A stretch of 64,000 bases of DNA, taken from Bacillaceae bacterium (GTDB taxonomy: Bacteria; Bacillota; Bacilli; JACDOE01). The DNA is taken from positions 36,400 to 100,399 of the forward strand of contig JACDOE010000010.1 in assembly GCA_017656255.1 (NCBI GenBank), read 5' to 3'. Positions 3,536-19,618 of this stretch are shown here, in pieces (positions within the stretch are counted from its first letter, which is position 1; each line of letters opens with the position of its first letter). Both the position numbers and the translations under genes were made by a program. The notes below the pieces were generated by a model. The model was not told where the DNA came from, did not search any database, and worked only from the letters and a program-made list of their open reading frames with translations.

Positions 3536-3544
3536 TTTACTCTG

Positions 3545-4816: not shown

Positions 4817-4926
4817 TCTATTGATTAAACTTTTATAGGGTAAATTTATATGAATGTTTATAATTTACCTCTTTAATTTTAAAACATACCACTAATGTTG
4901 CATAAATAGTTACAGAAAATCCAGAT

Positions 4927-5460
4927 TTATATGTTTGCGTGGAAATGGGCTAAAAAGCCAAATGCTAAAGTAAAATGTCCATTTAGAGTTGCAACGATAT
5001 AGATTTTCTTATGGACTACCTCGGATTTCCCATTGAATTTGGCGAACCATTTTTGAAAGGGATTTAATGTTTGTAACCAACGTTTGAAGAAGGGATTGCT
5101 TTGTTCTGTTTCCACGAGTAAACAATTTGTGATTAGGGCGGATTAAAGTCGGTTTTGAACCACCGTTTCCCATTTATACCATAAAAACCCTTTATTCAAA
5201 CATGTTGCTTAAACTATTTGAATAACTTAATTCCCCAACGAAACCAGTAGGTGTTACTAATCTGTTTAGCACTAATATCAAAGCGACTAGTAACGAATAT
5301 CTTTGCCTTGTGAGTCTACCGTTTCCACTAATTGAAATTCATTTTCGGTTCGCTTTACGTAGTTCCGATGACAAAGAGTCTAAGGAAATCGTTTTTATTT
5401 CAGATATAGCAAAGTGCTTGATTGTACAGTTCAACAACGGAATTTTTCTTGAGTCGTGAA
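4927..5460 (-). pseudogene. Possible degraded DDE transposase (IS remnant)
   Basis: Minus-strand frames give stop-interrupted peptides resembling transposase C-termini (ENEFQLVETVDSQGKDIRY, DISAKQISNTYWFRWGIKLFK); family not assigned. Confidence 0.25.
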
Positions 5461-5932
5461 GCAAAAGAAAATCCTTTAATAAGAAAAGCGATCAAAAAAC
5501 GTACATAGATTCTTTTTAGTCAATCAAAATCTCATGTTGCTAAAATTTGTTCACACGTTAAGAGTGATGATGACTTTCTCCGTAGATGGTACCGAAATCG
5601 ATAAATGCCAAACTTAAGTATAGTTTTACCCCTGCTTTTGTTTTTTGCGAAAGGATTCTCACTGGTAGTTTGTTAAATACATGTAGAATAATACTTGAAT
5701 TAATGATTTATAGATCAACTCATTTACCAAATAACTTGTCACATAGCGTTTTCCTTTCCTTTACTTTAGATTTGGATAGGGATCACCTATACTCTCCATT
5801 GTAAAGGATTTATAACACTTGCAGATCGAACATTCATTGTATTTTTAATACTCTGATTTAATTATTACAATACTAATACATAACAATCTGAATTATAAAT
5901 ATTATTCAAAGATTAACTTTGAAAGGTGCGTT

Positions 5933-7144
5933 TTATTTCATATCCAACTTACTGTTATACTTAATCGAGTCGGGAAGTGGAATATGCTCTACCTTAGGAA
6001 GAGATAAAAGACTTAGTAAACATAAACCCATAAATCCCAAGAATACATAGTGCGTATTCATAATCCCAGCCAAATACCCAGAAAGCAAGGCTGAAGAAAT
6101 CTTAGCAAATGATACCACAATTGACCGGAAACTAATCACGCGGCCCATTAACTCTTTAGGAGTGTTAATCTGAACCAGTGTCTGCATAGAAATCACATGA
6201 AATAGAATGAAGAATCCGAACCCGAACAAAGCAAAAACTGTAAACCAAACGTACCCATCAATTCCCATAAATAAGGAAAATACTACTAAACCAACTAAAG
6301 TTACCACACTAACTTTCTCTTTATATTTATATAATGCTTTTTCCACAACAAATCCACCCAATGATCCACCTAGTGTGAATGAAATGGTTATTATAGAAAA
6401 TAAAACGCTGGAACCTTTCATATCTCGTGCAACCATTGGAGCGAGTAGAGTATTTGTCATTTGATACCCTGCACTACTAATAGTAGCGAGGAAAAACAAG
6501 TATAACATTCCTCTTTTTTCATTTACAAACTTCCAACCAACTTTAATACCTTCAATAACGTCCATACTTTTACTTTGAATATTACGTCTATCTATTCGAC
6601 GAAGCAGTATAAAGAAAATTGATGATACCATAAAGGTTAATGCATTGATTGCAAAACAAATTTCTACTGATAAAATAGACATTACGATTCCTGCTATACC
6701 AGTACCAATCAATGCCATGACAAAATTAATTGAAGATGACTTAGAGATAACATAAACCATTTCTTCATCGCTGAATGATTCTCTAATTAACGTTTGAGAA
6801 GATGGCTTAAATACCAGATGACAAACTGCTAAAACAACTTGAAGAAGATAAAACATAACAATTGATATAGTATCTATAAAAATTAACAGAACAACAATAG
6901 ATACAGCTAACCCACGAATTAACTGAACAGCAACTGTTAACACTTTGGAGTCCTGATGGTCTGTAATTATTCCTACCCATGGTGCGAAAAATAAGGGAGG
7001 TAGGTAATTAATGGCGATTAATATTCCAAGGGACAGGGGACTTCCTGTAAGTTTTAAAACCAACCACATCAACGCTACCGATTGGAAACCATCTCCTAAA
7101 TTATTAATTGCTGAACCTAACAAATAAAAGAACTTATTTCGCAT
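5933..7144 (-). CDS. MFS transporter
   Basis: 403-aa ORF, about 12 predicted hydrophobic helices, N-terminal region typical of MFS efflux pumps. Confidence 0.7.
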   Translation of the reverse strand: MRNKFFYLLGSAINNLGDGFQSVALMWLVLKLTGSPLSLGILIAINYLPPLFFAPWVGIITDHQDSKVLTVAVQLIRGLAVSIVVLLIFIDTISIVMFYLLQVVLAVCHLVFKPSSQTLIRESFSDEEMVYVISKSSSINFVMALIGTGIAGIVMSILSVEICFAINALTFMVSSIFFILLRRIDRRNIQSKSMDVIEGIKVGWKFVNEKRGMLYLFFLATISSAGYQMTNTLLAPMVARDMKGSSVLFSIITISFTLGGSLGGFVVEKALYKYKEKVSVVTLVGLVVFSLFMGIDGYVWFTVFALFGFGFFILFHVISMQTLVQINTPKELMGRVISFRSIVVSFAKISSALLSGYLAGIMNTHYVFLGFMGLCLLSLLSLPKVEHIPLPDSIKYNSKLDMK

Positions 7145-7308
7145 AGTTGTGCCCTTCCATTTTTTATTTTAACTGGAAAATCATTTTATTTAGAAACATT
7201 AAATCGAGGAGGAATCGAAAAATAACATTCAAAAACACACTCTCTAAAATATATCCTTAAACTGTTGCTATTCGAATTCCTCCTCTGACATTCATGAAGT
7301 GAAGTGTT

Positions 7309-7989
7309 TTATTGTCTTCGTAATGAAAGGTTAGATAACTTAACGAAGCGTTTATATTTAAGAATAGTATCTAATACATCGCAAAGAATTAACATATTAG
7401 ACTCTTCCCCTGGAAAGTCACCCCAACTATCGTCATCGTTGCGAATGCTCATTAACCATTTGAAACCTTTTTCAATAGTGTTATGCCAAGAATAATCATC
7501 AAGGAGTTCACTCGCTAATATTAATGCTCGAATACTGTCACAAGTGTGGTCAACATTCATGTTATCGTAATGTCCTTCAGGATGTTGAGTCTTAACCAAG
7601 TATTGAACTGCTTTCTTAGAAGCTTTAACACCTTTCTTATCATATCCAAGAGTCTTTTGTAATAAGTGTGCTGTAACACAAACTGGTGTTTCATACTTTT
7701 CTTTATATTCCCATTCACCATCCTTACCCTGTCTTTCTATAATAAACTCCATAGCTTTGTTGTAAGGTTCTTCTACCATGTTTCTAATACGTTGTGGTAT
7801 ATCTGGAAGCATTCTAGCGAACATCAATGTACCGGCGCTTACACTAACAGCATCATAGAGTCCCCACTTATCATCCCACAAAGTCCCATCCTCTTTTTGT
7901 TGAGTGATTAACCAGGATAACCCATTATAAATTGCATTATCAAATCGCTCATTCCTCTGAGACAATGCATTATTAGCACGTAGAAGCAT
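7309..7989 (-). CDS. Prenyltransferase/squalene-cyclase-type (QW-like) repeat protein, possibly a fragment
   Basis: Repeated Q-x2-DG-x-W motifs (QQKEDGTLW, RQGKDGEW, NDDDSWGDFPG); only 226 aa and abutting the sigK repeat junction. Confidence 0.4.
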   Translation of the reverse strand: MLLRANNALSQRNERFDNAIYNGLSWLITQQKEDGTLWDDKWGLYDAVSVSAGTLMFARMLPDIPQRIRNMVEEPYNKAMEFIIERQGKDGEWEYKEKYETPVCVTAHLLQKTLGYDKKGVKASKKAVQYLVKTQHPEGHYDNMNVDHTCDSIRALILASELLDDYSWHNTIEKGFKWLMSIRNDDDSWGDFPGEESNMLILCDVLDTILKYKRFVKLSNLSLRRQ

Positions 7990-8149: not shown

Positions 8150-8887
8150 TTATTTGCGTTCCGGATGTTTGCGGTAAAATTCATGCAGCAGCTTCATCAA
8201 GGCCCTTTTTTCAATCCGGGAGACATAGGAACGTGAAATCCCCAGCTCTCTGGCAATTTCCCGCTGCGTCTTTTCTTCTCCCGATTCAAGCCCGAACCGG
8301 CCGATGATCACCTCCTTTTCTCTTTTATCCAGCACGTGAATGTTTTTGTAGATCTTGCTTCGTTCGATTTTGAATTCCACTTTGTCGATGACTTCGTTGG
8401 CGTCTGTTCCGAGGATATCCATCAGGCTGATTTCGTTACCTTCTTTGTCGGTGCCGATTGGATCGTGGAGGGAAACGTCTTTGCGGGTTTTTTTGAGGGA
8501 GCGCAGGTGCATGAGGATTTCATTTTCAATACATCTTGCTGCGTATGTGGCCAATTTGGTCCCTTTGTTTACCTTGTAACTTTCGATGGCCTTGATCAGC
8601 CCGATGGTGCCGATGGAGATCAAGTCTTCGCTGTCTTCGCCGGTGTTTTCAAATTTCTTGACGATATGCGCCACCAGGCGAAGGTTATGCTCGATCAGCA
8701 TATTCCGTGCCTCAACATCTCCCTGTTCCATCAAGCGTAAGTATTTCTCCTCGTCTTCTTCCGACAGTGGCTGGGGAAAGGCATTGTTCTTGACGTAGGA
8801 GACGAACAGAATCAGTTCTTTGTACAGAAGCGCCAGTAACCCGAGCAGTCCAGACACCCGATCCCACCTCCAGGAATAGTGCTTCAT
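8150..8887 (-). CDS. sigK: RNA polymerase sporulation sigma factor sigma-K (pro-sigma-K), intact
   Basis: 245-aa ORF with pro-sequence and conserved sigma-70 regions 2-4 ([84 protein letters not shown]), closely matching B. subtilis SigK from memory. Confidence 0.9.
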
Positions 8888-9061
8888 TTATGCCTATTCC
8901 CTTCTGGGCTTGTTTGTGTCTGTACTAAAAAAACTGTAATCAGTTTTATTTGCTTTTTTAAATTCTTTAAGTAAGTATCATATAACACCATAACAGACAG
9001 TAAAAGACAAGATCCCGGTTTGAATACCGAGATCATCACAGTAACTTAATACATCTCTAAT

Positions 9062-9562
9062 TTAATTAACCTTCTGATCATAAAACGCAATGGCCTCATC
9101 TATTAATTTTTCAAGATGTGGTTTAAGTTCAATTGCTTTTGATTTAGCTTTGTGTGTGTCATAGCCTAAATCAATTAAAAATGCATATGTACTAACCATT
9201 TCCAAAAACTGAGAACTTTCCTTGACCATAGAATTCAAAAGATCAGTATTAATTTTTAAAGAGTATCCTCCATCAGCTTCTAAAGTTTCTTTAAATGCTT
9301 TCCCCTTCTTAGTAATAGAGTACACATAAGCTTCATCGTTTTTTGATTCAGTTAGAAATCCTTGTTGTACTAAAGTATTTATCTCTTCTTGAAGTTCTGC
9401 AGAATATGGGCCATAAAAGTGGTATTCATACTTAAATGGTAAATCTAATCCGGCTGATTCAAGCAAATGCACCATCTTTTGTACCTTTTTTCGACCGTGT
9501 ACCTTTTTAATTTCATCAAACAGACTCAATAAACTGTAGGCTCCTTCGAACAATTCAATCAC
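9062..9562 (-). CDS. Panacea (DUF4065)-like protein, possible antitoxin-type partner of the HD protein
   Basis: GRKKVQKMVHLL...FYGPYS resembles the Panacea/SocA-like signature; start overlaps the HD gene stop (ATGA). Confidence 0.35.
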   Translation of the reverse strand: MIELFEGAYSLLSLFDEIKKVHGRKKVQKMVHLLESAGLDLPFKYEYHFYGPYSAELQEEINTLVQQGFLTESKNDEAYVYSITKKGKAFKETLEADGGYSLKINTDLLNSMVKESSQFLEMVSTYAFLIDLGYDTHKAKSKAIELKPHLEKLIDEAIAFYDQKVN

Positions 9563-10869
9563 CCTCCAAAAATTTCATTTTTATAATCTTCGGGCATAAA
9601 GTATCTATCTATAGAGATTTTTTTATTTCTAATTCCATTAATTATATCAGAGATCACTGATAATTCTGTACCATTTCCGTTATTATCAAATAAAATTATT
9701 TGCTCTGAAGCTTCACGTTCGCCTTCTTTTTCATCCGTTTTGGGCGTATGAAAAATATAGGGATCTTTGTATGAACTACTTTTAGCTTCGTCCATTAGAA
9801 AGTAGTACTTAATTGGAATGCCTTTTTTGTTTGAATATTCGAATACCTCCTGCCAAAACTCCATAGGACTTTTGTCTGGAATGGAAACTGACTTAAAAAA
9901 CTTTCTTCTTAATAGTCGAGTACAAAGATCGCTCAATATCGAATCTTGGTGTCTACTCCATATCGAAATAAAATACCAAATCGTATTATCTGTTAAATTA
10001 ATATAATTATGTAGTGTTTCTTTAAGGTTGCCTTTTTCTGATAAAATCCGAATCAAATCTTCAGGAAATTCAATCTCCTGTTTTTCTTGAAAAATCTCAT
10101 AAGCTCTATTAAATATTTTATCTACTAGTAGTTCAGCGCTCCGAGTTGTTTTGTGAAAATACACATTCATATACATATAGTACCTTGCCATAACAAAATC
10201 TTCGGCTATACTAATACCTTTTTCAAGATCTAACCCTACCTCAATTTGACCATTATATTCACCGATTCTCAATACATTTATCATCCATTCAAGATCGAAT
10301 GAACCGTAGCCTGCACCAGTCATTTTAGAGTCTCTTAATAAATAATCAATTCTATCTGTATCTAACTGACTTGATAACAATTTCACAAGAGCTTTGGATC
10401 TATGAGTTCGTTGAATAACATCAGCAACTTCATCTGGGTCCACATTGTACTTTTTGAGAACGCTATTGATTTCTGTATCCCCACGTATTATTTCTATTGT
10501 CCACTTTTCATGTCTAACGCCAGTTGTTTTTTCTAAAGCATGGGAAAAAGGGCCATGCCCAATATCATGTAGGAGTGCTGCAGTTAATGCTAACATTCTA
10601 TTATCAGCTAGCTCTTGAGAATATTGTTTGTATTGTTCATCCTTTAAGCTACATATCTTATTAATAAATCTTTTAGTTAAATGTGTCACACCAATAGAAT
10701 GAGCAAACCGAGTATGTTCGGCTCCTGGATATGTAAATGACGATAATCCAAGTTGTTTTATATGGCGTAGTCTTTGAAATTCTTGGGTATCTATTAATTC
10801 CAAAAGCAAAGCATCTGATTCTTTATCAAAATGAATAATATTATGTACGGGATCACGAATAGTTTTCAC
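9559..10869 (-). CDS. HD-domain dNTP triphosphohydrolase-like protein (dGTPase/SAMHD1 family)
   Basis: Motifs RFAHSIGV, LLHDIGHGPFSH, DTDRIDYLLRD characteristic of HD dNTPases; 436 aa. Confidence 0.7.
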   Translation of the reverse strand: MKTIRDPVHNIIHFDKESDALLLELIDTQEFQRLRHIKQLGLSSFTYPGAEHTRFAHSIGVTHLTKRFINKICSLKDEQYKQYSQELADNRMLALTAALLHDIGHGPFSHALEKTTGVRHEKWTIEIIRGDTEINSVLKKYNVDPDEVADVIQRTHRSKALVKLLSSQLDTDRIDYLLRDSKMTGAGYGSFDLEWMINVLRIGEYNGQIEVGLDLEKGISIAEDFVMARYYMYMNVYFHKTTRSAELLVDKIFNRAYEIFQEKQEIEFPEDLIRILSEKGNLKETLHNYINLTDNTIWYFISIWSRHQDSILSDLCTRLLRRKFFKSVSIPDKSPMEFWQEVFEYSNKKGIPIKYYFLMDEAKSSSYKDPYIFHTPKTDEKEGEREASEQIILFDNNGNGTELSVISDIINGIRNKKISIDRYFMPEDYKNEIFGG

Positions 10870-10917
10870 ATTATCACCCCATTATAAAACTCTTTAATTA
10901 TTATCTAACTCGACAAA

Positions 10918-11556
10918 CTAGAATGCATTGTGTTTTCCCATTTGTCTCAGTACTTCTAATCTATCTAAACAACTTGTACATAATAAGCAATGTCGATCCC
11001 CTAAAGCATTACAAGAAAAGGTTTTTTCTATTGGTACTGACATGTTAATTGCCTCATCAATTACAATCTGTCTGTCTAAACCCACAAATGGAGTGATCAA
11101 TTCAAATTCATGAAGTGATTCTGAAAGAGTAGTAGATATGCTCTCTATAAATGACTTACTTGTATCCTTATAAGATCTTGACCCAGTCACACCTATTGCT
11201 ATTTTTCGTATATCGTTTTTATACGCATATGCTCCAGCCAAAGATATTAAAATCATATTTCTGTTCGGAAAAAACTCGGTATTAAACCATTCTTCTGCTG
11301 AATATCCTGATTGAGGACTATCCCCCACAAGTGATCCAGAGCCAAGGTGCTTCATATTAGAAATGTCTAAAAATAAGACTTTATCCGCATACTCATTTCC
11401 TATTATTGATTTAATTGCTCTAATTTCGCCAGACACTGTTACTTGCCCATAGTTAATATGAATAGGGAATATATCGTATTTTCTTTTTCGCAACCAATAA
11501 TAAAGAACAACAGAATCAATGCCCCCTGATAATAATAATACGACTTTTTTTCTCAT
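10918..11556 (-). CDS. QueC-like PP-loop ATPase (7-cyano-7-deazaguanine synthase family)
   Basis: PP-loop SGGIDS near the N-terminus and a C-terminal Cys cluster (C-x8-C-x2-C-x2-C) as in QueC. Confidence 0.75.
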   Translation of the reverse strand: MRKKVVLLLSGGIDSVVLYYWLRKRKYDIFPIHINYGQVTVSGEIRAIKSIIGNEYADKVLFLDISNMKHLGSGSLVGDSPQSGYSAEEWFNTEFFPNRNMILISLAGAYAYKNDIRKIAIGVTGSRSYKDTSKSFIESISTTLSESLHEFELITPFVGLDRQIVIDEAINMSVPIEKTFSCNALGDRHCLLCTSCLDRLEVLRQMGKHNAF

Positions 11557-12818
11557 AATATATACAACTTCTCTATTAATTCTTCAATAGATTCAACTAT
11601 AACATTACAACCATAAACTAGCATATTATTTAATTCAAACTGTGAGGTTTTTAAAGCAATTATAGGGATACCTCTTTCATAAGCAAACCCAACTTCAAAA
11701 CATGTACCCGGATCATTATGATCTAACAATGCTACCACAACATCAGATTGTCTTATCAAGTCAAGATCTTTATCAAAAATATTTTTGCGTTCATCCATTG
11801 GTGTGTCTTTCTTTATAATTCCATTTTCTCGTAGAGGTGATAAAACTTTAAATCCACAATTTTCTATTCTATTCGTTATTAATTTAACCCAATCCTCTTC
11901 CTGTTTACTAAAAAATGGACCTGCCAAGTAAACGCTTTTGTCTGAATTACCAGATACAACAATTTCTCTTCTGTCCATATCTTCTTCTACCGCTACTCTA
12001 TTTATTATATTTTCAATTGTAAAATTCTCAATGAAGTTAGCAGCAACACAACTTGCTAACCTCGTACTATACTCAATATCCCTCGTCCTGAGAAATGTAG
12101 CAGCTAATGCACCACCAAAAACATCACCAGAGCCTAAAGTGCATTTAACATTACTTTTATACGCCGGTATATGTATAGTCTTTCCTTCGTTTACTAGAAT
12201 ACAACCTTTATATCCTCTTTTTACGATTATGTACTTAGGCCCCATATGAATTAACTTTTCAATAGCATTCTCTAAAGTATTTGCTTGAGTTAATAATAAA
12301 ACCTCTTCCTCATTTACTAAAAGTACAGATACATATTCTAAAATTTTTCTAGCATCATGAATTGATTTGCTATTTGGTTTTGGGTCAAGAAAAACAGGAA
12401 TATTTTTTTCACATGCTTGCTTACATAAATCTTCCGGAAGCGAGTGATCCACTGGAAATACTAAGATACCCTCACATTCATCACTTAGCTGTGGATTATA
12501 TTCAATACCGATTTTAACATCTATCAAAGGAGTACTTTTTTTAACTTCATAAGCTTTATAACCTTTTACTAAATATTTTGGCAGACAATAATTTTCCATA
12601 TATTTAGCACTCGAAAAACTTACACCCATTAAGTTCCATATTTTTATACTATATGAATCGATTTCGGGCCCGTATACTGTCATAAACTCAACATTGATGC
12701 CTTGTTTTGCTGCAGATATTGATGCATATAAACCGGCTCCCCCAAATCTATCGATAATCTTTGTATCATAATCTAATAATAAGTCAATACCTATCTCTCC
12801 GTATACAGCAATATTCAT
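11553..12818 (-). CDS. PfkB-family kinase fused to a nucleoside 2-deoxyribosyltransferase-like domain
   Basis: N-terminal ribokinase-like motifs (GGAGLY; TLGSGDVFGGALAA); C-terminal NDT/Rcl-like motifs (VYLAGPFF; DPGTCFEVGFA with putative catalytic Glu). Start set at the internal Met with a GAGGTG RBS; the track ORF runs to 12866. Confidence 0.6.
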   Translation of the reverse strand: MNIAVYGEIGIDLLLDYDTKIIDRFGGAGLYASISAAKQGINVEFMTVYGPEIDSYSIKIWNLMGVSFSSAKYMENYCLPKYLVKGYKAYEVKKSTPLIDVKIGIEYNPQLSDECEGILVFPVDHSLPEDLCKQACEKNIPVFLDPKPNSKSIHDARKILEYVSVLLVNEEEVLLLTQANTLENAIEKLIHMGPKYIIVKRGYKGCILVNEGKTIHIPAYKSNVKCTLGSGDVFGGALAATFLRTRDIEYSTRLASCVAANFIENFTIENIINRVAVEEDMDRREIVVSGNSDKSVYLAGPFFSKQEEDWVKLITNRIENCGFKVLSPLRENGIIKKDTPMDERKNIFDKDLDLIRQSDVVVALLDHNDPGTCFEVGFAYERGIPIIALKTSQFELNNMLVYGCNVIVESIEELIEKLYIL

Positions 12819-12823
12819 CGGTA

Positions 12824-13534
12824 TCACCTCACGAATTGAAAGTATCCGTTTCTCCCTAATATCCATAATAAATAGTCCATCTTACCTAAAGGCACTCCAA
12901 TCTTCAAGCAAATAATTCGTAATGCTTCTTCATATTGTAAGTAAACCTTTTCTGTTATGTTTTTAGGAATATTATATCCTAAGTAACCAAGAAATCTTAG
13001 TATATGGATATCCAGTACTGCACAATCATTATTAAATCCTGTATTCCTTAATAGCCAACTAGCTGATTTCATGCCAATACCTGGACATTCACATAGCCAT
13101 GTTCTAGCATCAAATGAATTAAGTTCATTAAGTTTATCAAATAATCTCCAGTGACAGTTCTCCCAAAGCCAATATCCAGCCTTGGATATAACCTTAGGCT
13201 TCGTTTCCACAAATCTATATTTTCTGAACTGGCCGTTACAAGTAATGGGATAAAACTGCTTTTTTGATAACTCTCTCTTTATTACATTTTCAATTATATA
13301 TAAGTTAGATATAGAGGAATAATATTTTGCTTCGATTAACCCTTTATTCTTTAATACATGTAAACCTGATTTGTTTAACTCATAACTGATTCCAAATCCT
13401 CCAAGAACTACGAAAAAAAATTCATCTATAACTTGTTCATTAGATTTTGAAACAAACGAAAACTCTCTTTCAATTGCAATACCATAAGTTTCCCAAAGTT
13501 CTTTTAACACATTGAATGCTCTAGTATTTTCCAT
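12824..13534 (-). CDS. Ogg-type HhH-GPD DNA glycosylase-like protein
   Basis: Helix-hairpin-helix with Lys (CPGIGMKSASWLL) followed by an Asp motif (VLDIHILR), matching the 8-oxoguanine glycosylase/AP lyase pattern. Confidence 0.6.
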   Translation of the reverse strand: MENTRAFNVLKELWETYGIAIEREFSFVSKSNEQVIDEFFFVVLGGFGISYELNKSGLHVLKNKGLIEAKYYSSISNLYIIENVIKRELSKKQFYPITCNGQFRKYRFVETKPKVISKAGYWLWENCHWRLFDKLNELNSFDARTWLCECPGIGMKSASWLLRNTGFNNDCAVLDIHILRFLGYLGYNIPKNITEKVYLQYEEALRIICLKIGVPLGKMDYLLWILGRNGYFQFVR

Positions 13535-13540
13535 ATCACT

Positions 13541-13891
13541 TTACGCCTCTACCTCTACTGTAACCTTCGGGTCATGTTGATTCCCTTCTTTTTTTATTAC
13601 AACCCCCTTGTATTCCCACCCTTCTTCAATACATTTTAAGAGCCAACTGTATTTTGGAGGAACGACCCCTATACTAAAATTATCTTTTTCTTTTTTTACT
13701 TCCATGACCGGCAATGTATCATCATTTCTTAAGATAATAGACACTTCATCATTCACAGAAACATTTCTCCACACTGCTTTTTGATTCTCATTAACAATTA
13801 ATAAAATTGTAACTTTTTCACCGCATCTATTTACTGTTTTTCCAGTTCCTCCTCCAAAACCACCAAATGATGAAAAGCCACCACTTCCCAT
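13541..13891 (-). CDS. Small protein with glycine-rich N-terminus (unknown function)
   Basis: 116 aa; N-terminal GSGGFSSFGGFGGG; strong RBS (TAAGGAGGA); first or second gene of the block B operon. Confidence 0.4.
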   Translation of the reverse strand: MGSGGFSSFGGFGGGTGKTVNRCGEKVTILLIVNENQKAVWRNVSVNDEVSIILRNDDTLPVMEVKKEKDNFSIGVVPPKYSWLLKCIEEGWEYKGVVIKKEGNQHDPKVTVEVEA

Positions 13892-14024
13892 ATAAATCCT
13901 CCTTACTAGTTATTTTTTTTTTTGCAATCTTTATAATACTCCAAAACTATTTATATTTAAATTAAATGAAATCTCATTTTGATCACTTCTTTTGTAAATT
14001 GTCTAATGTGCTTAGAATATGTTA

Positions 14025-14450
14025 TTATTTCTCTAGACCAAATTCTCTTTTTAATTTATTAAAGTCATATTCTTTTATTTCGATTGGGATACTAAGGTTC
14101 TTAAGTTTTGACATCAAATCGCTTTTATTAACAACAGGTTTGTCCTCGTAAACAATTGCGAATATCAATTTAAAATTATTTATTGAAGCACTGTCTAAAT
14201 TTTTAGCTGTCTGATATAACGATTCAATAACATTACGAGTTAACTTACCTCGTTTATTATATTTTATCTCAAATCCATAAGTTGAATTATCAGTTTTACT
14301 AATACCATCAATTTCAATTAACTTATCAGAAGATTTAAATGCCATGTGTCTCTGAATAGGAATTTTAAATTCTTGTTCAAGTTTCCTAAACACCAAATCT
14401 TCAGCTAAAAAGTATTGCATTTTGGGATCAACAGTCACTTTGGAAGGCAT
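14025..14450 (-). CDS. Hypothetical protein, possible PD-(D/E)xK-like fold
   Basis: 141 aa; spaced D...E-x-K residues (IEIDG, FEIKY); weak RBS; in-frame open sequence upstream without an ATG suggests possible truncation. Confidence 0.3.
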   Translation of the reverse strand: MPSKVTVDPKMQYFLAEDLVFRKLEQEFKIPIQRHMAFKSSDKLIEIDGISKTDNSTYGFEIKYNKRGKLTRNVIESLYQTAKNLDSASINNFKLIFAIVYEDKPVVNKSDLMSKLKNLSIPIEIKEYDFNKLKREFGLEK

Positions 14451-15283
14451 GTCTAACGTACCCGCTTTATCCTCTTCAATATTATTATCACTAGAAGATT
14501 CTTCAAGCTCTGCTTCTGCTTTCTTTCTTTGTGAATCACTAGTTAATTTTAAGAAATTCCCTTCATCCTTAAAATCACTTGGCGCATATAATTTGGTATG
14601 ATAAAAATCACAAGTCTATAAAATGTAAATAAAACAAGTAAAGGGAAAATTACTATGAAACACACAAGGAACCATTTTTGAGAAACATTTAATTCCGAAC
14701 TAAATTGAAGTACTAATGCTGCTATTCCATAAATTAGTGATATAAATAATGCAATGATACCTAAGGGGTTCTTTGTAAAACCTGATGCACTTCTCGTGAA
14801 TTCTATTATTATCGCTCACCTTCCTTGTAAAAATTTTAAAATGATGCCAACGTTACTCATTCTTAATACCAATCCAAATCATATCCGTGGACAAAAATGG
14901 CTGGAAAATATAAAACATGTCTGAGTATCAAAAAATTAATCTTTTAATATAACATTCTTCTCTTTTTTCTCATTAACTCCTCCTAGCTTTTGTGCACACC
15001 AATATATTAAAAAACAATCTTCAAAACTATACTTACTCCTTTTAGATCAAAGATCAAAAAATCCCTAACAAAAAAATTAGTGTTTATTCTCAATTGTATT
15101 TCGGTAAAAAAACAGATAATCCCTTTTAGGACAAATAAAAAATAATTAGTAAGGATATCACTCTATACTATATACTTATCTGAATTAATAGGTTTAATTG
15201 GTTTTATAATTATCTTCTTTTAGCTATTTGAAACCCCCCCTGACCCAGCACCACACCAGCATTCTTCCGACATCGCTTCGTGT

Positions 15284-15561
15284 TCACAACCTCTTGACGA
15301 TATGCGCCACCAGGCGAAGGTTATGTTCGATCAGCATATTTCGCGCCTCAACATCTCCCTGTTCCATCAAGCGTAAGTATTTCTCCTCGTCTTCTTCCGA
15401 CAGTGGCTGGGGAAAGGCATTGTTCTTGACGTAGGAGACGAACAGAATCAGTTCTTTGTACAGAAGCGCCAGTAACCCGAGCAGTCCAGACACCCGATCC
15501 CACCTCCAGGAATAGTGCTTCATTTATGCCTATTCCCTTTTGGGCTTGTTTGTGTCTGTAC
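15284..15561 (-). pseudogene. sigK: Orphan sigK 5' fragment (36-bp leader plus codons 1-77, then VKRL-stop)
   Basis: 15292-15561 matches 8654-8925 of the intact sigK with 4 mismatches, all synonymous or in the leader; homology ends at codon 77/78. Confidence 0.85.
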
Positions 15562-15742: not shown

Positions 15743-18346
15743 TTATAACCTCGGGTCAATTTCTTTCTCTTTACTTACTTCAAATAGCATGTTAGCAACC
15801 ACCTGTTTATATTTATGATCTGACTCATTTATTTTATCTAAATGAAAGGCCAACATCTCTTTCCCAAGTTTGAATTCATTGATAGAGGTTTTTAGTTTCT
15901 TTGAAATATTTTTTTGCTTTAAAAGCTTGGCATATTTGTGTGGAAAGCGATAATCATATCCATAAACAATGGTTAAATAATCTGGATTGCGAACTTTCAT
16001 ATAAGGGGCAGTATCATCTGCCAATTTTTCAGGTTTAATCACGACACCTTCCATTTTTCTTTCTGTTGTCAAAGTCTTAAAAAAGGTTAAAGCTTTTTCA
16101 TAATAATCCTGTTCGTTTAAATCGATCAACATAAATTCATCATCAGATACAAACTTAAAAATTTCCGATGTTGATTCTGCAGGGATGATCTCTTCTCCAT
16201 TTTCCTTGACCATTTTTAAAATATTAAATGGTTTATAGTTAATCTCATCATCCTTTGCATAGAGCTCGATTTGTTCATGATATTTTTGATGGGCTTCCAC
16301 ATGTTTTTCTATTGGTTCATATGACTTTAACATAGTTTGCAACGCCTTATAAGTCTGGTAAGTGGCACCGCCAAACTTTTTAATCAAATCTTTCTTAGAC
16401 ATTGTTTGCTGATCGACTTCATAGTCACTTGATTTATATTGCTCAACAAGTTTTTGAAAGTGGGCATCAAAGCCTTGCTCCTTTAAAAAATCCAACTCTG
16501 TTTGTAAAGCTCTGTCTATAGTCCTAAATTGCTTTTCAATCAATTCCTCTCCCAAAATAGACCAGGGCAGTAATTCACCATCAAACACGATTGTTTTTAT
16601 TTTATTCTCTTTCATGTAATCCGAAAATTTATTTAACAGATTATCATATACCGGAGACAAATCCACTTTCTTAATTTTAAATCCATTTCGACTCACTGCA
16701 TAACATTGATCTAGTTCCCTTGCTAAGTAAATGTTACATCTTGACCCCATGTACTTCGGTTGCAAAACCACTTTATGGACGCCTTTTCTCTTAAAATACA
16801 ACAACCCCTGTTTTAAAGATTCCAATTCATTGCTATCCAAATCTTTGTCAGCCGGCGACATGGTACCAGAAATATAATTAATCTTATTTTTCAAGACATA
16901 ATTAAGGCGCTTTTGGTCCTGTTCATGTAAATCCTCGATGTTAACATGTTTATCTCTTTGTTTAAATAAAGTAGGTAAAGGTTCGTTCCAGTATTTACTA
17001 GTGCTTGTAATTCGCTGCTGTTTAAAAAACGGTCTCCAGGAGTCAATCACAACAGAAGAAAGAACATTTCCATTGGCAGCTCCCGTATCAATGTTAATCT
17101 TATTTTTAATTTGGACTATTTCTTTTACAGCAACATGTCCAAAAATATGATACGGATGATTTCCAACACTCTCTGACTCCAGAAAGTGCAATTGCTCCTC
17201 GTAGGGTTTTTCTCGATCAAGAACAAAGCTTCTTTGCTTTTTCAGAGACGTTTTATCTAACTTCCCTATATATTTGTTTTGACACGGAGCATGTGTCACA
17301 TAAAAGGAAGGCTTTTGTAATCCAATATACCTGTAGAATTCTTTCGAAGATTCAACGAGTCGGAAAAATTTGTGTTTTAAATCCTCATCCTTTTCAAAGA
17401 TTTCTATAGAGTCAAAGTAGTTGTCTAGTAAACTTGAATCTACTGAATTCTTATCAATTTCACCTTTCAAGTATTTGTAAACAAAATTCTCATGATTTCC
17501 TTTTACAAGCACAAAATGATCCATATTTTGTTCAATAAATTCTACCGTCTCTTTGGTAGCATTTCCTTTGTCAATCCAGTCTCCGTTAAGAATAATTTTA
17601 TATTCATCCGTTTTTTCAGTGGATAAAATACGATTATTTTCAATATTAAACCCATAGCTGATAAGCAGCTTTTTTAAATCAGCCACTTTTTCATGAACAT
17701 CTCCAACAATTATATATTTGTGTTCCTGCGGCAAAATATGACTGAGATAATGATCTAAATCCTCTATCATAATTTTATAATTTGCATTCGGTTCATTGGT
17801 ATCAGGGTTATAGAAATCCCGCTCCCTAATTTTGTGTATTCGACGAAATTTTGACTTTGAAATTTGTTTCAGAACCTCTCTTTTGAGACGAGTGACATGA
17901 TTTGAAATTAATCGTCTTGAACCACCTGAAGCATAGAAATCTTCTCTATTTTTAAAATCAAAAAGTATAGCTTCCAGGTTATATTGCTTTTCTTTAGCAA
18001 TTTCCATGATTTGCTCACGGAATTCTTCTGAAAGGCCAATTGTATCAACAATGACGAACTCGGCGTTAATTGGAAATGACGTAACGGCTTTTAGTTTCTC
18101 AAATAAAATATGAAAGGCTTGTTCGCTGCTTTCCATCATAATTCTGTCATGTTTGTCATATTCATGTCCCAAAATATCCTGCCTGATTTCATCAGAGGAA
18201 ATATATTGAACATTGGTTTTAAAGCCCCGATCCTTATCCTGAATAGAAAGTTGAGGCAACAATATTTCTTTAGCAAATGTTGATTTACCGGAATTAGTAG
18301 CACCAATTAACATAAATATGGTATGCATATTTGTTTTTAATTCCAT
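15743..18346 (-). CDS. pnkp: Polynucleotide kinase-phosphatase (Pnkp): kinase, metallophosphatase and ligase-like domains
   Basis: 867 aa; P-loop GATNSGKST; calcineurin-like GDVHEK and GNHE motifs; C-terminal domain with a KYMGSR lysine motif; size and order match bacterial Pnkp. Confidence 0.8.
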   Translation of the reverse strand: MELKTNMHTIFMLIGATNSGKSTFAKEILLPQLSIQDKDRGFKTNVQYISSDEIRQDILGHEYDKHDRIMMESSEQAFHILFEKLKAVTSFPINAEFVIVDTIGLSEEFREQIMEIAKEKQYNLEAILFDFKNREDFYASGGSRRLISNHVTRLKREVLKQISKSKFRRIHKIRERDFYNPDTNEPNANYKIMIEDLDHYLSHILPQEHKYIIVGDVHEKVADLKKLLISYGFNIENNRILSTEKTDEYKIILNGDWIDKGNATKETVEFIEQNMDHFVLVKGNHENFVYKYLKGEIDKNSVDSSLLDNYFDSIEIFEKDEDLKHKFFRLVESSKEFYRYIGLQKPSFYVTHAPCQNKYIGKLDKTSLKKQRSFVLDREKPYEEQLHFLESESVGNHPYHIFGHVAVKEIVQIKNKINIDTGAANGNVLSSVVIDSWRPFFKQQRITSTSKYWNEPLPTLFKQRDKHVNIEDLHEQDQKRLNYVLKNKINYISGTMSPADKDLDSNELESLKQGLLYFKRKGVHKVVLQPKYMGSRCNIYLARELDQCYAVSRNGFKIKKVDLSPVYDNLLNKFSDYMKENKIKTIVFDGELLPWSILGEELIEKQFRTIDRALQTELDFLKEQGFDAHFQKLVEQYKSSDYEVDQQTMSKKDLIKKFGGATYQTYKALQTMLKSYEPIEKHVEAHQKYHEQIELYAKDDEINYKPFNILKMVKENGEEIIPAESTSEIFKFVSDDEFMLIDLNEQDYYEKALTFFKTLTTERKMEGVVIKPEKLADDTAPYMKVRNPDYLTIVYGYDYRFPHKYAKLLKQKNISKKLKTSINEFKLGKEMLAFHLDKINESDHKYKQVVANMLFEVSKEKEIDPRL

Positions 18347-19618
18347 TTACTTTTCACCTCTTGCTTTAACCAAAACTCCCTGAGTGGTATAAACCCCGTC
18401 TACACAATCGCCAATACTTAAATGATGAATCTCAAAATCTCGTTCATCAAAAATCTCACTTATCCATTGTTTAAATTCATTTGTCCCCATTTCCCATTTA
18501 TGATCTTCATGCCGATATTCATCCAGGGAATAATACTTATTAAAATCATGATTTGGAGTCGTTATAATAATGGATTCAAAATGAATGTCATCAAGAATTG
18601 TTAAAATTAGTTTTTTAGCCTCATCCTTCTCCATGTGTTCAATGACTTCTGTAAGGATGACATCAACTAATTCCCCATTGTAATCTTCAATAAAATCCTC
18701 AATGGATCCATAAGTTAATATATTTTCAATACCCCTTTTTTTAATTCTTGCATCCAGCGAACGAATGATATCTTCATCAATGTCAATGGCATAATAGTAT
18801 TTGTCACCTATACTTTCGGAGAAAAGAAAGGCATAATAACCTTCCCCACATCCAACATCAACAATTGGTTTGTTGAAGGGTAATAACTTTTTTATCGCTT
18901 CTCTTCTTTGGTGAGCTGTATGTCCGTAAGAAAAGTTTATGTCATACCTTTGTGTTTCTTCCAGGCTTTCTTTAAATTTTGAAAATAATTTCCTGCTGGT
19001 AAGTATGTTTCGTGCAAACAGATACCTTATAAAAAACGGAGCATCCAGGACTTTAATTTGATTAACATACTTTTCAATCAAACTATCTGTAACATCAAGG
19101 TATTCGTTACCTATTAAAGATAAAAATAAAAACAATAGATTAGCTGTATTCAATAAATCATAAATACTTTTGTTCGTTTTGATTTTAATTGAATAGCTCT
19201 TGTGAGATTGATGAATCATTTCGATAGAGAAATCCTCAAAATGTTTGCTAAAAAAATCTATATATCTTGGTAGTGTGATATGAACCATATTCACAAATAA
19301 TTCATTTTCATATCCTTCAAGATCATTATCATACCGGTTTTTGATTGTGGAATTAAAGAATTCTGTCATTGCGTTTAATGGAAAAAGAGGTGTATTATAT
19401 CTTGAAACATTTAGATATTCAAAGCTTTCTTCTTTATGTTGCTTGTAAGATATCTCGTTGTCAGCGTCCTTAAAATATATATTGTAGGTTTGATCATCAG
19501 AATACCAGCCAAACGCAATTCCCTGTCTGACTGTACGCAACATCATGCCTGAAGCTGGATTTTTGCGTATTAAAAAAGAAAAGTGCGGATTCGTTGATTT
19601 TAACTGAACAATAGCCAT
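18347..19618 (-). CDS. hen1: Hen1-like RNA 3'-terminal ribose 2'-O-methyltransferase
   Basis: 423 aa; C-terminal class I MTase motif (VDVGCGEGYY); stop abuts the pnkp start. Confidence 0.7.
   Translation of the reverse strand: MAIVQLKSTNPHFSFLIRKNPASGMMLRTVRQGIAFGWYSDDQTYNIYFKDADNEISYKQHKEESFEYLNVSRYNTPLFPLNAMTEFFNSTIKNRYDNDLEGYENELFVNMVHITLPRYIDFFSKHFEDFSIEMIHQSHKSYSIKIKTNKSIYDLLNTANLLFLFLSLIGNEYLDVTDSLIEKYVNQIKVLDAPFFIRYLFARNILTSRKLFSKFKESLEETQRYDINFSYGHTAHQRREAIKKLLPFNKPIVDVGCGEGYYAFLFSESIGDKYYYAIDIDEDIIRSLDARIKKRGIENILTYGSIEDFIEDYNGELVDVILTEVIEHMEKDEAKKLILTILDDIHFESIIITTPNHDFNKYYSLDEYRHEDHKWEMGTNEFKQWISEIFDERDFEIHHLSIGDCVDGVYTTQGVLVKARGEK

Follow-up and report, generated by a model that had tools for sequence, protein, structure and literature searches.

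The window, the entire stretch of 64,000 nucleotides analyzed here, contains a gene cassette in its four-gene minimal form, accompanied by genes for an HD-domain protein and a YwgA-like protein, within a low-GC insert of 6.6 kb located in sigK between direct repeats (Table 1). The four genes encode a small partner protein, an OGG-like glycosylase, a fusion of a PfkB-type kinase with a nucleoside 2-deoxyribosyltransferase (NDT), and a QueC-like ligase. An ORF of 79 codons (15284–15523) is identical to the N-terminus of SigK. The hairpin that follows ywgA is a possible end of a six-gene transcription unit; the promoter and terminator scan gave no more sites in total than shuffled sequences did.

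Table 1. Positions in the window of the cassette genes, the fusion domains and the associated features
Feature	Position	Strand	Remarks
Direct repeat, remnant sigK 5' fragment, left-hand copy	15292..15561	.	pairs with 8656-8925
Small partner protein, 116 aa	13541..13891	-	directly upstream; disordered MGSGGFSSFGGFGGGTGK tail and HIRAN-like domain
OGG-like HhH glycosylase, 236 aa	12824..13534	-	counterpart of Cap11; Pfam Ogg-HhH 4e-21
PfkB kinase/nucleoside 2-deoxyribosyltransferase fusion gene	11553..12818	-	421 aa; end includes stop codon
PfkB (ribokinase-family) kinase domain, ~residues 1-285	11964..12818	-	Foldseek and conserved residues
NDT domain, ~residues 293-421	11556..11942	-	PF05014 and nearest solved NDTs
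QueC-like ATP-dependent ligase, 212 aa	10918..11556	-	Pfam QueC 1.7e-37; start overlaps fusion stop by 4 nt
HD-domain phosphohydrolase, 436 aa	9559..10869	-	Pfam HD and HD_assoc_2; 48 nt downstream of QueC
YwgA-like protein, 166 aa	9062..9562	-	overlaps HD stop by 4 nt; weak DarG C-terminal and DUF4364 matches
Terminator-like hairpin after ywgA	9011..9034	-	consensus scan; total sites not above shuffles
Direct repeat, 5' part of sigK, right-hand copy	8656..8925	.	270 nt, 99% identical to 15292-15561

The fusion protein and its enzymatic partners

The fusion is encoded by one unbroken ORF on the minus strand, whose longest form (11553..12866) has 437 codons. The ATG at 12818 is preceded, 6 nt upstream, by a strong Shine-Dalgarno sequence (GAGGTGA), and the resulting 421-residue form matches the database protein P0001. 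For these two reasons we regard this ATG as the real start, as originally proposed. The original prediction of a PfkB–NDT fusion is borne out by profile searches and by structure prediction. The sequence scores 85.1 bits against Pfam PfkB (PF00294; cut-off 25.8) and 76.5 bits against Nuc_deoxyrib_tr (PF05014; cut-off 28.8, residues 312–411 of the 437-residue form), with an additional match to PF15891 (57.2 against a cut-off of 30), and the AlphaFold2 model has a pLDDT of 90.3 and a pTM of 0.79. The best PF00294 stretch covers profile positions 149–290 only, the N-terminal half being divergent. In the model, the whole PfkB fold is present, with its α/β core and β-sheet lid, and Foldseek aligns the N-terminal ~285 residues with complete PfkB kinases over ~300 columns. 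The matches include YihV, ribokinases, and nucleoside and pseudouridine kinases, with E values down to 7e-21 and target TM scores of 0.7–0.8.

The same two-domain architecture was found in all 93 protein clusters recovered (93/93), as a single conserved ORF. A frameshifted pair of separate genes, an outcome that would have undone the prediction, was rejected on this basis. No unrelated Rossmann-like family matched the C-terminal domain better than NDTs did: in phmmer searches, its closest solved relatives are the NDTs 7m5h (9e-9) and 6evs (1e-8), with weaker similarity to Rcl/DNPH1 (0.02–1). By sequence, the domain is thus nearer to true transferases than to the DNPH1/Rcl hydrolases, which we take only as a lean towards transferase activity.

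The motifs RFGGAG, NEEE (of the NxxE type), TLGSGDVFGG, YLAGPFF and DPGTCFEVG are present, including all of those quoted originally. The kinase domain carries DP at 145–146, the NxxE residues Asn169 and Glu172, and GSGD at 229–232. Among the 83 full-length relatives, G[ST]GD is kept in 83, Asn169 in 74 and Glu172 in 82. The NDT residues are similarly conserved (Tyr297 in 81/83; Asp351, Asp369 and Glu375 in 82/83 each). Glu375, the residue proposed earlier as a candidate nucleophile, aligns with the nucleophilic glutamate of 7m5h, 6evs and Rcl, and the putative roles of Tyr297, Asp351, Asp369 and Glu375 are taken from the NDT family. Both active sites are conserved in every cassette variant. 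PADLOC has no model for the fusion of the window, nor for the CBASS-linked fusion described below.

The best solved relative of the QueC-like ligase is Cap9 (9nto_B, 1.7e-11), followed by QueC itself (3bl5, 2.8e-10). Its conserved features are SGGxDS, YGQ..E, PxRN, Asp131 and four cysteines. The nearest solved relatives of the OGG-like protein, for which PADLOC has no model either, are of the Ogg2 type (9o00, 3n0u and 3fhf), and its catalytic Lys156 and Asp175 are kept in 63–64 of 66 sequences. The HD gene is a facultative neighbor, possibly with a functional link to the cassette. HD/dGTPase-family genes lie within 10 kb of the cassette in 19/86 and 13/80 loci, as well as in E. coli, and dGTPase-family genes adjoin it in the window, in loci L002, L007, L049 and L060, and in E. 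coli. An HD gene is present in ~16–25% of loci. The HD and YwgA genes adjoin it as a pair in the window, L007, L020 and L040, YwgA traveling with this type of HD protein.

Distribution of the cassette and its small partner

The fusion is found in a tight operon with the small protein and the QueC-like ligase in ~170 loci from bacteria, archaea and proviruses, usually together with the OGG/Cap11-like glycosylase. The small gene is present in 55 of the 65 genome loci, an adjacent QueC-like gene in 57 and OGG in 50; in the 80 metagenome loci, the three genes are present in 75, 67 and 57. Since most of the ~170 loci have the QueC-like and OGG-like genes in one operon with the fusion, the functional tie between them that was suggested from the window alone is substantiated. 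The order small gene, fusion, QueC-like gene (abutting or overlapping) holds across phyla. Together with strand and the 4-nt overlaps or abutting stops and starts, it persists across Bacillota, Proteobacteria, Bacteroidota and Archaea at only 21–26% protein identity. Where the small gene and the fusion occur as tandem pairs, the pairs share a single QueC. A Dam-type DNA methylase accompanies OGG in 16–19 loci per set.

The surroundings of the cassette are those of defense islands and mobile elements. Its neighbors include Wadjet, TerB, BrxC, AbiE, Mrr, CBASS-II and Gabija genes, and the 134 neighbors, which span 118 Pfam families, match PADLOC models for dGTPase (the commonest, 10/134), AbiL, PARIS and Septu. 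Seven provirus contigs have the same gene order. These are the only seven IMG/VR contigs with the fusion, most NDT matches there being stand-alone phage genes unrelated to the cassette. In E. coli, the cassette occurs in 22 of 5426 complete genomes (0.4%), in a selC integrase island. One copy of this version (NZ_CM136168.1, 1568175–1572357) encodes the small protein WP_223597170, the fusion WP_001095700, the QueC-like WP_000844892, a nitroreductase-like protein (WP_001567923), the OGG-like WP_001567922 and a Dam-like protein (WP_001567921). Literature searches found no named system of this composition, the sole mention of the gene pair being that of Libby et al. (Biochem J 2026, PMC13329287). 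The cassette is widespread, mobile and undescribed, and the fusion is its signature enzyme. The original prediction had missed the near-universal partner of ~110 residues, the defense-island and mobile setting, and the replacement of Cap10 described below.

The small partner of the window has no Pfam, NCBIfam or PADLOC match, and a homologue search with its single sequence returned only itself. Its family was recovered using an alignment of locus-derived homologues; it extends over bacteria, archaea and proviruses and forms at least 1400 clusters when grouped at 50% identity. The window protein begins MGSGGF and the family consensus is MSGSGG, the start of 51 members, with MGGSG or MGSGG as other starts. 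Almost all of the 150 best representatives have the Gly/Ser motif at their actual N-terminus, and a disordered tail follows it. The same motif, M(G/S)G(G/S)GG, is the acceptor in the CD-NTases of type IV CBASS, for which the modified peptide reads GGSGGSFGSGFDPR (Wassarman et al., bioRxiv 10.1101/2025.04.06.647259). We presume that the small partner is likewise the acceptor of an N-terminal nucleobase. Most members of the family begin Met-Ser rather than Met-Gly, which counts against such a role: the published motif permits Gly or Ser, yet only a Gly acceptor has been demonstrated (bioRxiv 10.1101/2025.04.06.647259).

The body of the small protein shows fold similarity to HIRAN domains in a medium-confidence model (domain pLDDT ~65–88). 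Its relation to known HIRAN domains (HLTF, Rad5 and the bacterial lp_0118, PDB 3k2y) is undetectable at the level of sequence profiles. Pfam HIRAN matched none of 65 members at E<=1, and the family profile matched no PDB sequence at E<=10. The small protein further differs from these domains in two invariant cysteines (Cys23 and Cys87) and in its N-terminal Gly/Ser tail. It may bind DNA 3' ends, and the modeled HIRAN-like body suggests that a conjugate would be used there.

Relation to known QueC-dependent and NDT-containing systems

The closest known system is type IV CBASS (Cap9/Cap10/Cap11; Wassarman et al.). Like the cassette, it combines a QueC-family ligase with a disordered M(G/S)G(G/S)GG partner and an OGG-like glycosylase. 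It also has an N-glycosyl transferase that exchanges bases by way of a covalent sugar–enzyme intermediate, as is predicted for the fusion. The cassette of the window contains the Cap9-like ligase and the M(G/S)G(G/S)GG partner that characterize type IV CBASS; however, it lacks a CD-NTase and a CBASS effector (Pfam and PADLOC searches of its genes gave no SMODS/cyclase or effector match), and its presumed acceptor is a HIRAN-like protein of ~110 residues. Its transglycosylase has the NDT fold fused to a PfkB kinase instead of the TIM barrel of TGT. The donor would accordingly be a free (deoxy)ribose, and there would be a step of phosphorylation, which is not known in type IV CBASS. No TGT-like gene is present in the window cassette and no TGT family occurs among the 25 most frequent neighbor families. 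With its defining genes (CD-NTase, effector and Cap10) absent, an assignment of the window cassette to type IV CBASS was rejected.

Three loci have operons like those of type IV CBASS, namely L053 (Thermoplasmata), L034 (Dehalococcoidales) and L167. They combine the fusion with a Cap9-like QueC, an exonuclease, an effector resembling Cap17 and a CD-NTase that bears a Gly tail; L053 additionally has an OGG. No TGT/Cap10 gene was seen in the portions of these loci that were read, the reading being most complete for L053. In these TGT-less operons, the fusion occupies the Cap10 slot. Cap10 is essential in the characterized type IV CBASS system (bioRxiv 10.1101/2025.04.06.647259).

QatABCD also pairs a QueC-family protein (QatC) with a partner (QatB) whose unstructured N-terminus (MGTS, with a small second residue) is essential. 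In contrast, the cassette has neither the KAP NTPase QatA nor the TatD nuclease QatD, its ligase lacks the N- and C-terminal extensions of QatC, and its partner is β-rich and HIRAN-like where QatB is helical; Qat, in turn, has no kinase, NDT or OGG. An identification as Qat was rejected, as neither QatA nor QatD genes lie alongside and the QueC-like protein has 212 residues, compared to ~400 for QatC. A DNA 7-deazaguanine modification system of the Dpd type was also rejected, given that no DpdA/TGT or DpdB-like genes are present.

Libby et al. (PMC13329287) describe a "Cluster 4" of the QueC superfamily whose members are slightly shorter than QueC, contain SGGxDS, YGQ..E and a variant Cys motif, have a PF00294–PF05014 neighbor in ~89% of cases and frequently have HTH neighbors. 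Cluster 4 probably represents the same gene pair; the consensus of the QueC-like family of the cassette is C-H...CxxCxGCxK. The window protein departs from this consensus with Asn183, Ser195 and Asp198 in place of His, Gly and Lys, and has the P-loop, YGQ..E, the four cysteines and the PF00294–PF05014 neighbor. The passages of the paper that were covered make no mention of the small acceptor, OGG, the nitroreductase-like and Dam-like partners, the defense setting, the CBASS variant or the PurA variant (see below).

Classical NDTs (Lactobacillus-type NDT/PDT; 7m5h, 6evs) and DNPH1/Rcl belong to the same fold family as the C-terminal domain of the fusion, sharing YxAGPxF, the Asp residues and the Glu of D-x-G-T-x-x-E-x-G. 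Unlike them, the fusion is tied to a kinase, is located in a conflict-system operon and likely uses a protein-linked base as acceptor. Retron Ec86 (Eco1) likewise employs an NDT-fold protein, there in anti-phage defense. In contrast to the cassette, this effector is a stand-alone protein tied to a reverse transcriptase and msDNA, with no kinase, QueC or OGG partners.

Proposed function and competing explanations

The original prediction envisaged base exchange or N-glycoside hydrolysis together with phosphorylation, possibly of a modified base. Such chemistry, involving a 7-deazapurine, is still the most plausible for the fusion. The other element of the prediction, a free (deoxy)nucleoside as substrate, found no such support: the acceptor-like partner, the defense and mobile setting, and the replacement of Cap10 make a protein-linked nucleobase the more likely substrate. 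We propose, by analogy to Cap10 and with an even chance of being right in our estimate, that the fusion is the transglycosylase and kinase of a mobile cassette of the deazaguanylation type, probably anti-phage, and acts on a protein-linked nucleobase. We count the conserved gene set, the acceptor-like small protein, the Cap9-like ligase, the OGG-like protein with its catalytic Lys and Asp, the Cap10 slot, the co-variation of ligase type and N-terminus described below, the tandem pairs, the conserved active sites of the fusion, the affinity of its NDT domain to true transferases and the defense setting in favor of this proposal. Against it, in addition to the Met-Ser starts, the four-gene minimal form has no obvious toxic effector, based on a profile search of the window genes. 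Further points against it are the HIRAN assignment from fold similarity in a medium-confidence model, the lack of a PADLOC model for the fusion and the purine-salvage interpretation of Libby et al. To our knowledge, NDTs are known only to act on free bases and nucleosides, so that a protein-linked acceptor would be unprecedented.

We infer each of the following steps. After removal of Met, the QueC-like ligase would use ATP to couple 7-carboxy-7-deazaguanine to the free amine at the N-terminus of the small protein, as Cap9 does with the CD-NTase. The small protein would thereby carry an N-terminal 7-amido-7-deazaguanine whose N9 is free. The NDT domain would then take up the sugar of a (deoxy)nucleoside donor as a glycosyl-enzyme intermediate on Glu375, to be resolved by N9 of the protein-linked base; this double displacement would follow the logic of the TGT-like Cap10, with a free sugar in place of tRNA. 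The neighboring HD/dGTPase-type enzyme, where present, could supply deoxynucleoside donors. Phosphorylation of a hydroxyl of the new sugar by the PfkB domain would yield a protein-tethered nucleotide, and the HIRAN-like body may direct the action of the conjugate to DNA 3' ends. The OGG-like glycosylase could recut the N-glycosidic bond for reset or regulation, as proposed for Cap11.

Protein deazaguanylation was discovered in 2025, and its discoverers stated that the final transfer target of the modified N-terminus is unknown and that the free N9 might receive ribose (bioRxiv 10.1101/2025.04.06.647259). The cassette offers an independent transglycosylase, from a nucleoside-specific family and fused to a sugar/nucleoside kinase. 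This enzyme takes exactly the place of Cap10, in type IV CBASS operons devoid of TGT as well as across a large gene family that is independent of CBASS. The addition of a sugar to a protein-linked base, followed by a phosphate, thereby becomes a concrete hypothesis that is testable by mass spectrometry. If correct, the proposal would add a third family, and a very widespread one, to the QueC-dependent conflict systems; this family includes a version in the E. coli selC island.

The fusion could instead be an effector that depletes nucleotide pools, the NDT domain destroying (deoxy)nucleosides or nucleotides as an N-glycosidase or transferase, PfkB trapping the released sugar or nucleoside by phosphorylation, and the QueC-like ligase, the small protein and OGG serving as sensor or regulator. 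We consider this rather unlikely. NDT-like anti-phage effectors are known, as in retron Ec86, and the minimal cassette has no other obvious effector; however, the CBASS-type loci already have a Cap17-like nucleosidase and an exonuclease, and the fusion stands there where the essential Cap10 is missing. The dGTPase family, which converts dNTPs to deoxynucleosides, provides the commonest neighbors, although the HD gene is found in only the minority of loci given above. The hydrolases DNPH1/Rcl, MilB and BlsM are also more distant from the domain than true NDTs are. Finally, the small and fusion genes duplicate together, which speaks for a relation to a cognate substrate or partner and not for a generic effector.

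The production of a free 7-deazapurine (deoxy)nucleotide, for salvage or as an antiviral analogue, would account for the three enzyme families most simply and comes close to the original interpretation. The QueC-like protein would make or modify a free base, NDT would add deoxyribose, PfkB would form the monophosphate, OGG would clear the product from host DNA, and the small protein would act as a regulator or chaperone. All known NDTs take free bases, Libby et al. (PMC13329287) proposed purine salvage, and the Dam-type methylase that accompanies OGG hints at DNA involvement. We nevertheless judge this explanation unlikely, as it leaves unaccounted for the near-universal small protein with its acceptor motif, the affinity of the ligase to Cap9 rather than QueC, and the presence of the fusion in type IV CBASS operons without TGT, in which the CD-NTase tail serves as acceptor. 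Housekeeping salvage is also at odds with the rarity of the cassette in E. coli genomes and with its location in integrase islands and proviruses.

A more far-reaching version of protein-linked chemistry, which we regard as quite improbable, is that the cassette would build a whole (deoxy)nucleotide on the N-terminus of a DNA 3'-end binder, with base, sugar and phosphate supplied in turn by the QueC-like ligase, the NDT domain and the PfkB domain. This would then be joined to, or incorporated at, phage DNA ends as a reversible DNA–protein cap that blocks replication or packaging and is removed by the OGG-like enzyme. Were this the case, it would reveal what Cap10 attaches the CD-NTase to, i.e. 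a sugar or a nucleic-acid position. That the fusion is independent of its neighbors and adjacent to them only through crowding is barely credible: defense islands do pack unrelated genes, as the many Pfam families among the neighbors illustrate, but the order, strand and overlaps conserved from Bacillota to Archaea at such low identity already contradict it.

In six loci, the QueC-like ligase is replaced by a PurA-like ligase, an exchange seen in Bacteroidota. PurA couples an amine to C6 of the purine. In the four genome loci of this kind that were read, the small protein begins MKGGGG, MTAKGGG or MKGKPD in three and is called truncated in the fourth; the type of ligase thus co-varies with the N-terminus of the small protein. 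The PurA variant fits our proposed order of sugar addition and then phosphorylation less neatly, since this ligase would already deliver a nucleotide. If the proposal is correct, the exchange of PurA for QueC would extend nucleobase–protein conjugation beyond 7-deazapurines.

Domain structure of the fusion protein

The PfkB kinase and nucleoside 2-deoxyribosyltransferase (NDT) domains are encoded by a single long ORF, which contains every motif quoted in the original prediction and no frameshift that would divide it into two genes. The longest ORF call spans 11553..12866 of the minus strand. The functional start is ATG 12818, based on a ribosome-binding site (GAGGTGA) 6 nt upstream and on the match to P0001, a 421-residue protein in the database that comes from a Bacillaceae MAG. 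Both domains exceed the curated Pfam cut-offs (85.1 bits versus 25.8 for PfkB and 76.5 bits versus 28.8 for NDT), and this pair is present in all of the protein clusters recovered with the fusion (93/93). Since an NCBIfam search gave only ribokinase-family matches, all sub-threshold, the fusion is not an orthologue of any named kinase.

The AlphaFold2 model, built from 27 homologues, is confident (pLDDT 90.3, pTM 0.79). Residues 1 to ~285 superpose on PfkB kinases over their whole length, including the lid; the kinases matched are YihV sulfofructose kinase, ribokinases, and nucleoside and pseudouridine kinases. For the C-terminal ~130 residues, the nearest relatives are genuine NDTs (7m5h and 6evs), with DNPH1/Rcl, blasticidin M and CMP N-glycosidase being more distant. 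The homologues form a Bacillota clade with 47–75% identity to the window protein and a much larger clade from Proteobacteria and many other phyla with only 21–26% identity. The DP motif, NxxE and G-S-G-D of the kinase half are invariant or nearly so across both clades, as are Y-L-A-G-P-F-F, two to three Asp and a Glu in the NDT half. In alignments, this Glu, the candidate nucleophile of the original prediction, falls at the nucleophile position of known NDTs and Rcl. Among 83 full-length members, G[ST]GD is present in all, and the Glu residues of NxxE and of the NDT half are each retained in 82. Thus, judged by sequence conservation, both halves appear to be under selection as active enzymes.

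The cassette and its small protein

A look-up of three homologues, from Desulfitobacterium, Paenibacillus and Yersinia, identified the same cassette beside Wadjet, TerB, BrxC-like, AbiE, Mrr, type II CBASS, Gabija and dGTPase genes. Further sets of 80 genome, 80 provirus-collection and 80 metagenome loci were searched with HMMs made from the cassette neighbours in the window. The fusion is present in only 7 of the 80 provirus-collection loci, the remainder being stand-alone phage NDT genes. With crude ORF calling, in which the longest ORF was taken, the small protein accompanies the fusion in 55 of the 65 genome loci with enough flank and in 75 of the 80 metagenome loci; the corresponding numbers are 57 and 67 for the QueC-like protein, and 50 and 57 for the OGG-like protein. 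The order small gene, fusion, QueC-like gene is nearly universal, with stops and starts abutting or overlapping. The OGG-like gene occurs in two arrangements: upstream and co-directional, which is how the window has it, or downstream in convergent orientation.

The window contains the minimal, four-gene form. Most cassettes outside Bacillota have an additional nitroreductase/SagB-like gene after the QueC-like gene (~220 residues; motifs RRSxRxF, PSAGxxHP, WRDAG and CPLG; 33 genome and 48 metagenome loci, L003 and many others), and often also a Dam-type methylase gene adjoining OGG (~225 residues, DPPY; 16 and 19 loci), both absent from the window. An XRE-type HTH protein also recurs outside Bacillota (12 genome and 10 metagenome loci). 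In the window, the cassette is followed by an HD phosphohydrolase (HD and HD_assoc_2 domains) translationally coupled to a YwgA-like protein with weak resemblance to the C-terminal domain of the antitoxin DarG (9062–10869, and related loci L007, L020 and L040). Distantly related phyla also have this pair beside the cassette, and in L040 the pair adjoins a stand-alone NDT-like gene. A 141-residue ORF upstream of the small gene has no family match and is not conserved in related Bacillota loci, and the about 800 bp from there to the sigK repeat (14450–15290) contain no ORF of at least 60 residues.

Coordinates of features in the window and in related loci
Feature	Sequence	Position	Strand
sigK 3′ fragment, 99% identical to intact sigK	window	3542–3841 (ORF 3545–3907)	
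Low-GC insert without the cassette	window	3842–8146	
Genes of the insert without the cassette	window	4025–7989	
sigK, intact	window	8150–8887	minus
Low-GC insert with the cassette	window	8926–15291	
YwgA-like gene, after HD phosphohydrolase	window	9062–9562	minus
HD phosphohydrolase, after cassette	window	9559–10869	minus
QueC-like	window	10918–11556	minus
Fusion	window	11553–12818	minus
OGG-like	window	12824–13534	minus
Small protein	window	13541–13891	minus
141-residue ORF	window	14025–14450	minus
sigK 5′ fragment, 99% identical to intact sigK	window	15292–15561	
Pnkp/Hen1 pair	window	15743–19618	minus
Spo0M-like protein	window	19774–21105	
STAND/AAA_16-LuxR regulator	window	23514–25544	
Two further genes of cassettes outside Bacillota (nitroreductase/SagB-like protein and Dam-type methylase)	L003	11825–12499 and 13285–13854	
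CBASS-like operon	L053	2352–7710	
CBASS-like operon	L034	6683–11152	
CBASS-like operon	L167	4439–8965	

The small protein has no match in Pfam, NCBIfam or PADLOC, and its family is annotated as hypothetical everywhere. A word-indexed search gave 624 clusters at 90% identity, and an exhaustive search gave 1439 clusters at 50% identity (E<=1e-3). The sequence starts with MSGSGG in 51 of 78 distinct sequences, with MGGSG and MGSGG as other starts. In the window, the N-terminus is MGSGGFSSFGGFGGGTGK, preceded by a perfect AAGGAGG ribosome-binding site. In the exhaustive search, almost all of the 150 top hits align their first residue with profile position 1, which places the Gly/Ser motif at the true N-terminus. 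A medium-confidence model predicts a HIRAN-like fold. Both Cys23 and Cys87 are invariant throughout the family (65/65 and 121/121 aligned sequences); HIRAN domains are not known to have such a cysteine pair. Three loci (L047, L074, L087, and possibly L075) contain tandem pairs of small-protein and fusion genes with one shared QueC-like gene, which suggests cognate partners and supports a direct relation between the two proteins.

Relation to type IV CBASS and proposed role

In type IV CBASS, the QueC-like Cap9 joins 7-carboxy-7-deazaguanine to the glycine at the N-terminus of the CD-NTase, which "universally" begins M(G/S)G(G/S)GG (modified peptide GGSGGSFGSGFDPR). The modified N-terminus sits "poised for transfer" in the base pocket of Cap10, a TGT-like transglycosylase; defence requires the Cap10 nucleophile. 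The OGG-like Cap11 is proposed to reverse the transfer (Wassarman et al., bioRxiv 10.1101/2025.04.06.647259). QatC and QatB are likewise a QueC-family enzyme and a partner bearing an N-terminal tail. Among solved structures, the window QueC-like protein is closest to Cap9 (1.7e-11), with B. subtilis QueC ranking lower. It retains the P-loop, YGQ..E and PxRN, together with the base-binding-motif Asp and the four zinc cysteines. The OGG-like protein retains the catalytic Lys and Asp, which are mutated in deposited Ogg variants, and the small protein shares the acceptor motif of the CD-NTase. These three proteins fit the type IV CBASS/QatBC pattern.

The strongest evidence on the role of the fusion comes from type IV CBASS-like operons in a Thermoplasmata archaeon (L053), Dehalococcoidales (L034) and a metagenome (L167). 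Their QueC/Cap9 matches the PADLOC CBASS QueC model at 1e-60, and the CD-NTases match the cyclase model (6e-93 and 1e-97) and have Gly-rich N-termini (MGGGTPIGNSSWSSGG; MCGSGGSYRR). The operons also contain the PfkB-NDT fusion, a Cap17-like effector and an exonuclease effector, with OGG in addition in L053 (1e-82). No TGT/Cap10 was seen in the portions of these operons examined, most complete for L053. Thus, the fusion appears to occupy the slot of Cap10, which is essential in the characterized system. NDT and TGT have unrelated folds and common chemistry, in which a carboxylate nucleophile forms a covalent sugar-enzyme intermediate that is resolved by N9 of an incoming purine-like base.

Six loci (L023, L030, L049 and L078, L196 and L200; four Bacteroidota genomes and two metagenome contigs) contain, directly after the fusion, an adenylosuccinate-synthetase-like (PurA) gene instead of QueC (PF00709, 1e-44). 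Enzymes of this family join an amine to purine C6. In the four genome loci, whose N-termini were read, three small proteins have Lys-containing starts (MKGGGG, MTAKGGG and MKGKPD) and the fourth was called truncated; OGG is absent from this variant. Ligase type and small-protein N-terminus co-vary, which further supports a direct relation of the small protein to the fusion.

We propose that the QueC-like enzyme would conjugate deazaguanine onto the small-protein N-terminus, the NDT domain would take a (deoxy)ribosyl group from a donor nucleoside and attach it to N9 of the protein-linked base, the PfkB domain would phosphorylate that sugar, and the OGG-like enzyme could re-cleave the glycosidic bond. 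The HIRAN-like fold, OGG and, in many loci, the Dam-type methylase point towards DNA as the direction of the conjugate. HD/dGTPase-family enzymes, which would yield deoxynucleosides, the natural NDT donors, are the commonest cassette neighbours (10 of 134 neighbour ORFs); they are encoded no more than 10 kb away in 19/86 and 13/80 loci, and directly beside the cassette in both the window and E. coli. This link is facultative, and island clustering could be its sole cause.

A nucleotide-depleting effector role for the fusion is plausible, though of low probability: NDT-like effectors exist in retrons and the minimal cassette has no other effector, but the CBASS-type loci already hold effectors and lack Cap10. 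Slightly less probable still is a free-nucleotide salvage or antimetabolite pathway, a reading close to that of the original prediction; such a pathway accounts neither for the acceptor-motif protein and the CBASS variant nor for the sporadic, island-borne distribution. It is also the reading of Libby et al. 2026 (PMC13329287), who record the PF00294-PF05014 co-occurrence with QueC "Cluster 4" and interpret it as purine salvage. Mere crowding in defence islands is so improbable that we exclude it, since gene order and overlaps are kept at ~22% identity. Literature searches found no description of the small acceptor protein, of the OGG, nitroreductase or methylase partners, of Cap10 replacement by the fusion, of the PurA swap, or of a defence test; we therefore file the cassette as a variant among QueC-dependent N-terminal nucleobase conjugation systems.

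Defence islands and the sigK-bounded inserts

Among the 134 nearest neighbour ORFs, 118 Pfam families are represented, many with roles in defence or mobile elements (including dGTPase, AbiL, AbiE, PARIS AriA, Septu PtuA, CapP, Mrr, GmrSD, HipA, IS66 transposases and resolvases), and the cassette occurs on seven IMG/VR contigs. Among 5426 complete E. coli genomes, just 22 have it. There the cassette occupies an integrase-bearing island at selC (tRNA-Sec), and its genes carry no more than the annotations [quoted passage not shown]. In the E. coli locus L166 (NZ_CM136168.1, 1560532–1580929), the neighbours of the cassette are a dGTPase-family gene, IS elements and three genes of the heat-resistance island, trx-GI, kefB-GI and psiE-GI.

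In the window, the cassette lies within a ~32% GC stretch of a ~49% GC genome, inside a 6.6-kb insert. The direct repeats on either side of this insert are 270 nt long, share 99% identity and correspond to the 5′ part of sigK. Both low-GC inserts of the window are bounded by sigK direct repeats of 270–300 nt, a structure that assembly could in principle affect in this MAG contig, and neither contains a recombinase gene. They look like single-crossover (Campbell-type) insertions that leave sigK intact, unlike the skin element. The other insert encodes a class I methyltransferase, an MFS transporter and a squalene-hopene-cyclase-repeat protein. Just past the sigK remnant, the same low-GC region as that of the cassette encodes a bacterial Pnkp/Hen1 RNA-repair pair (an 867-residue kinase-phosphatase-ligase and a 423-residue Hen1 methyltransferase); a Spo0M-like protein with a multi-pass membrane tail and a STAND/AAA_16-LuxR regulator are encoded further along.
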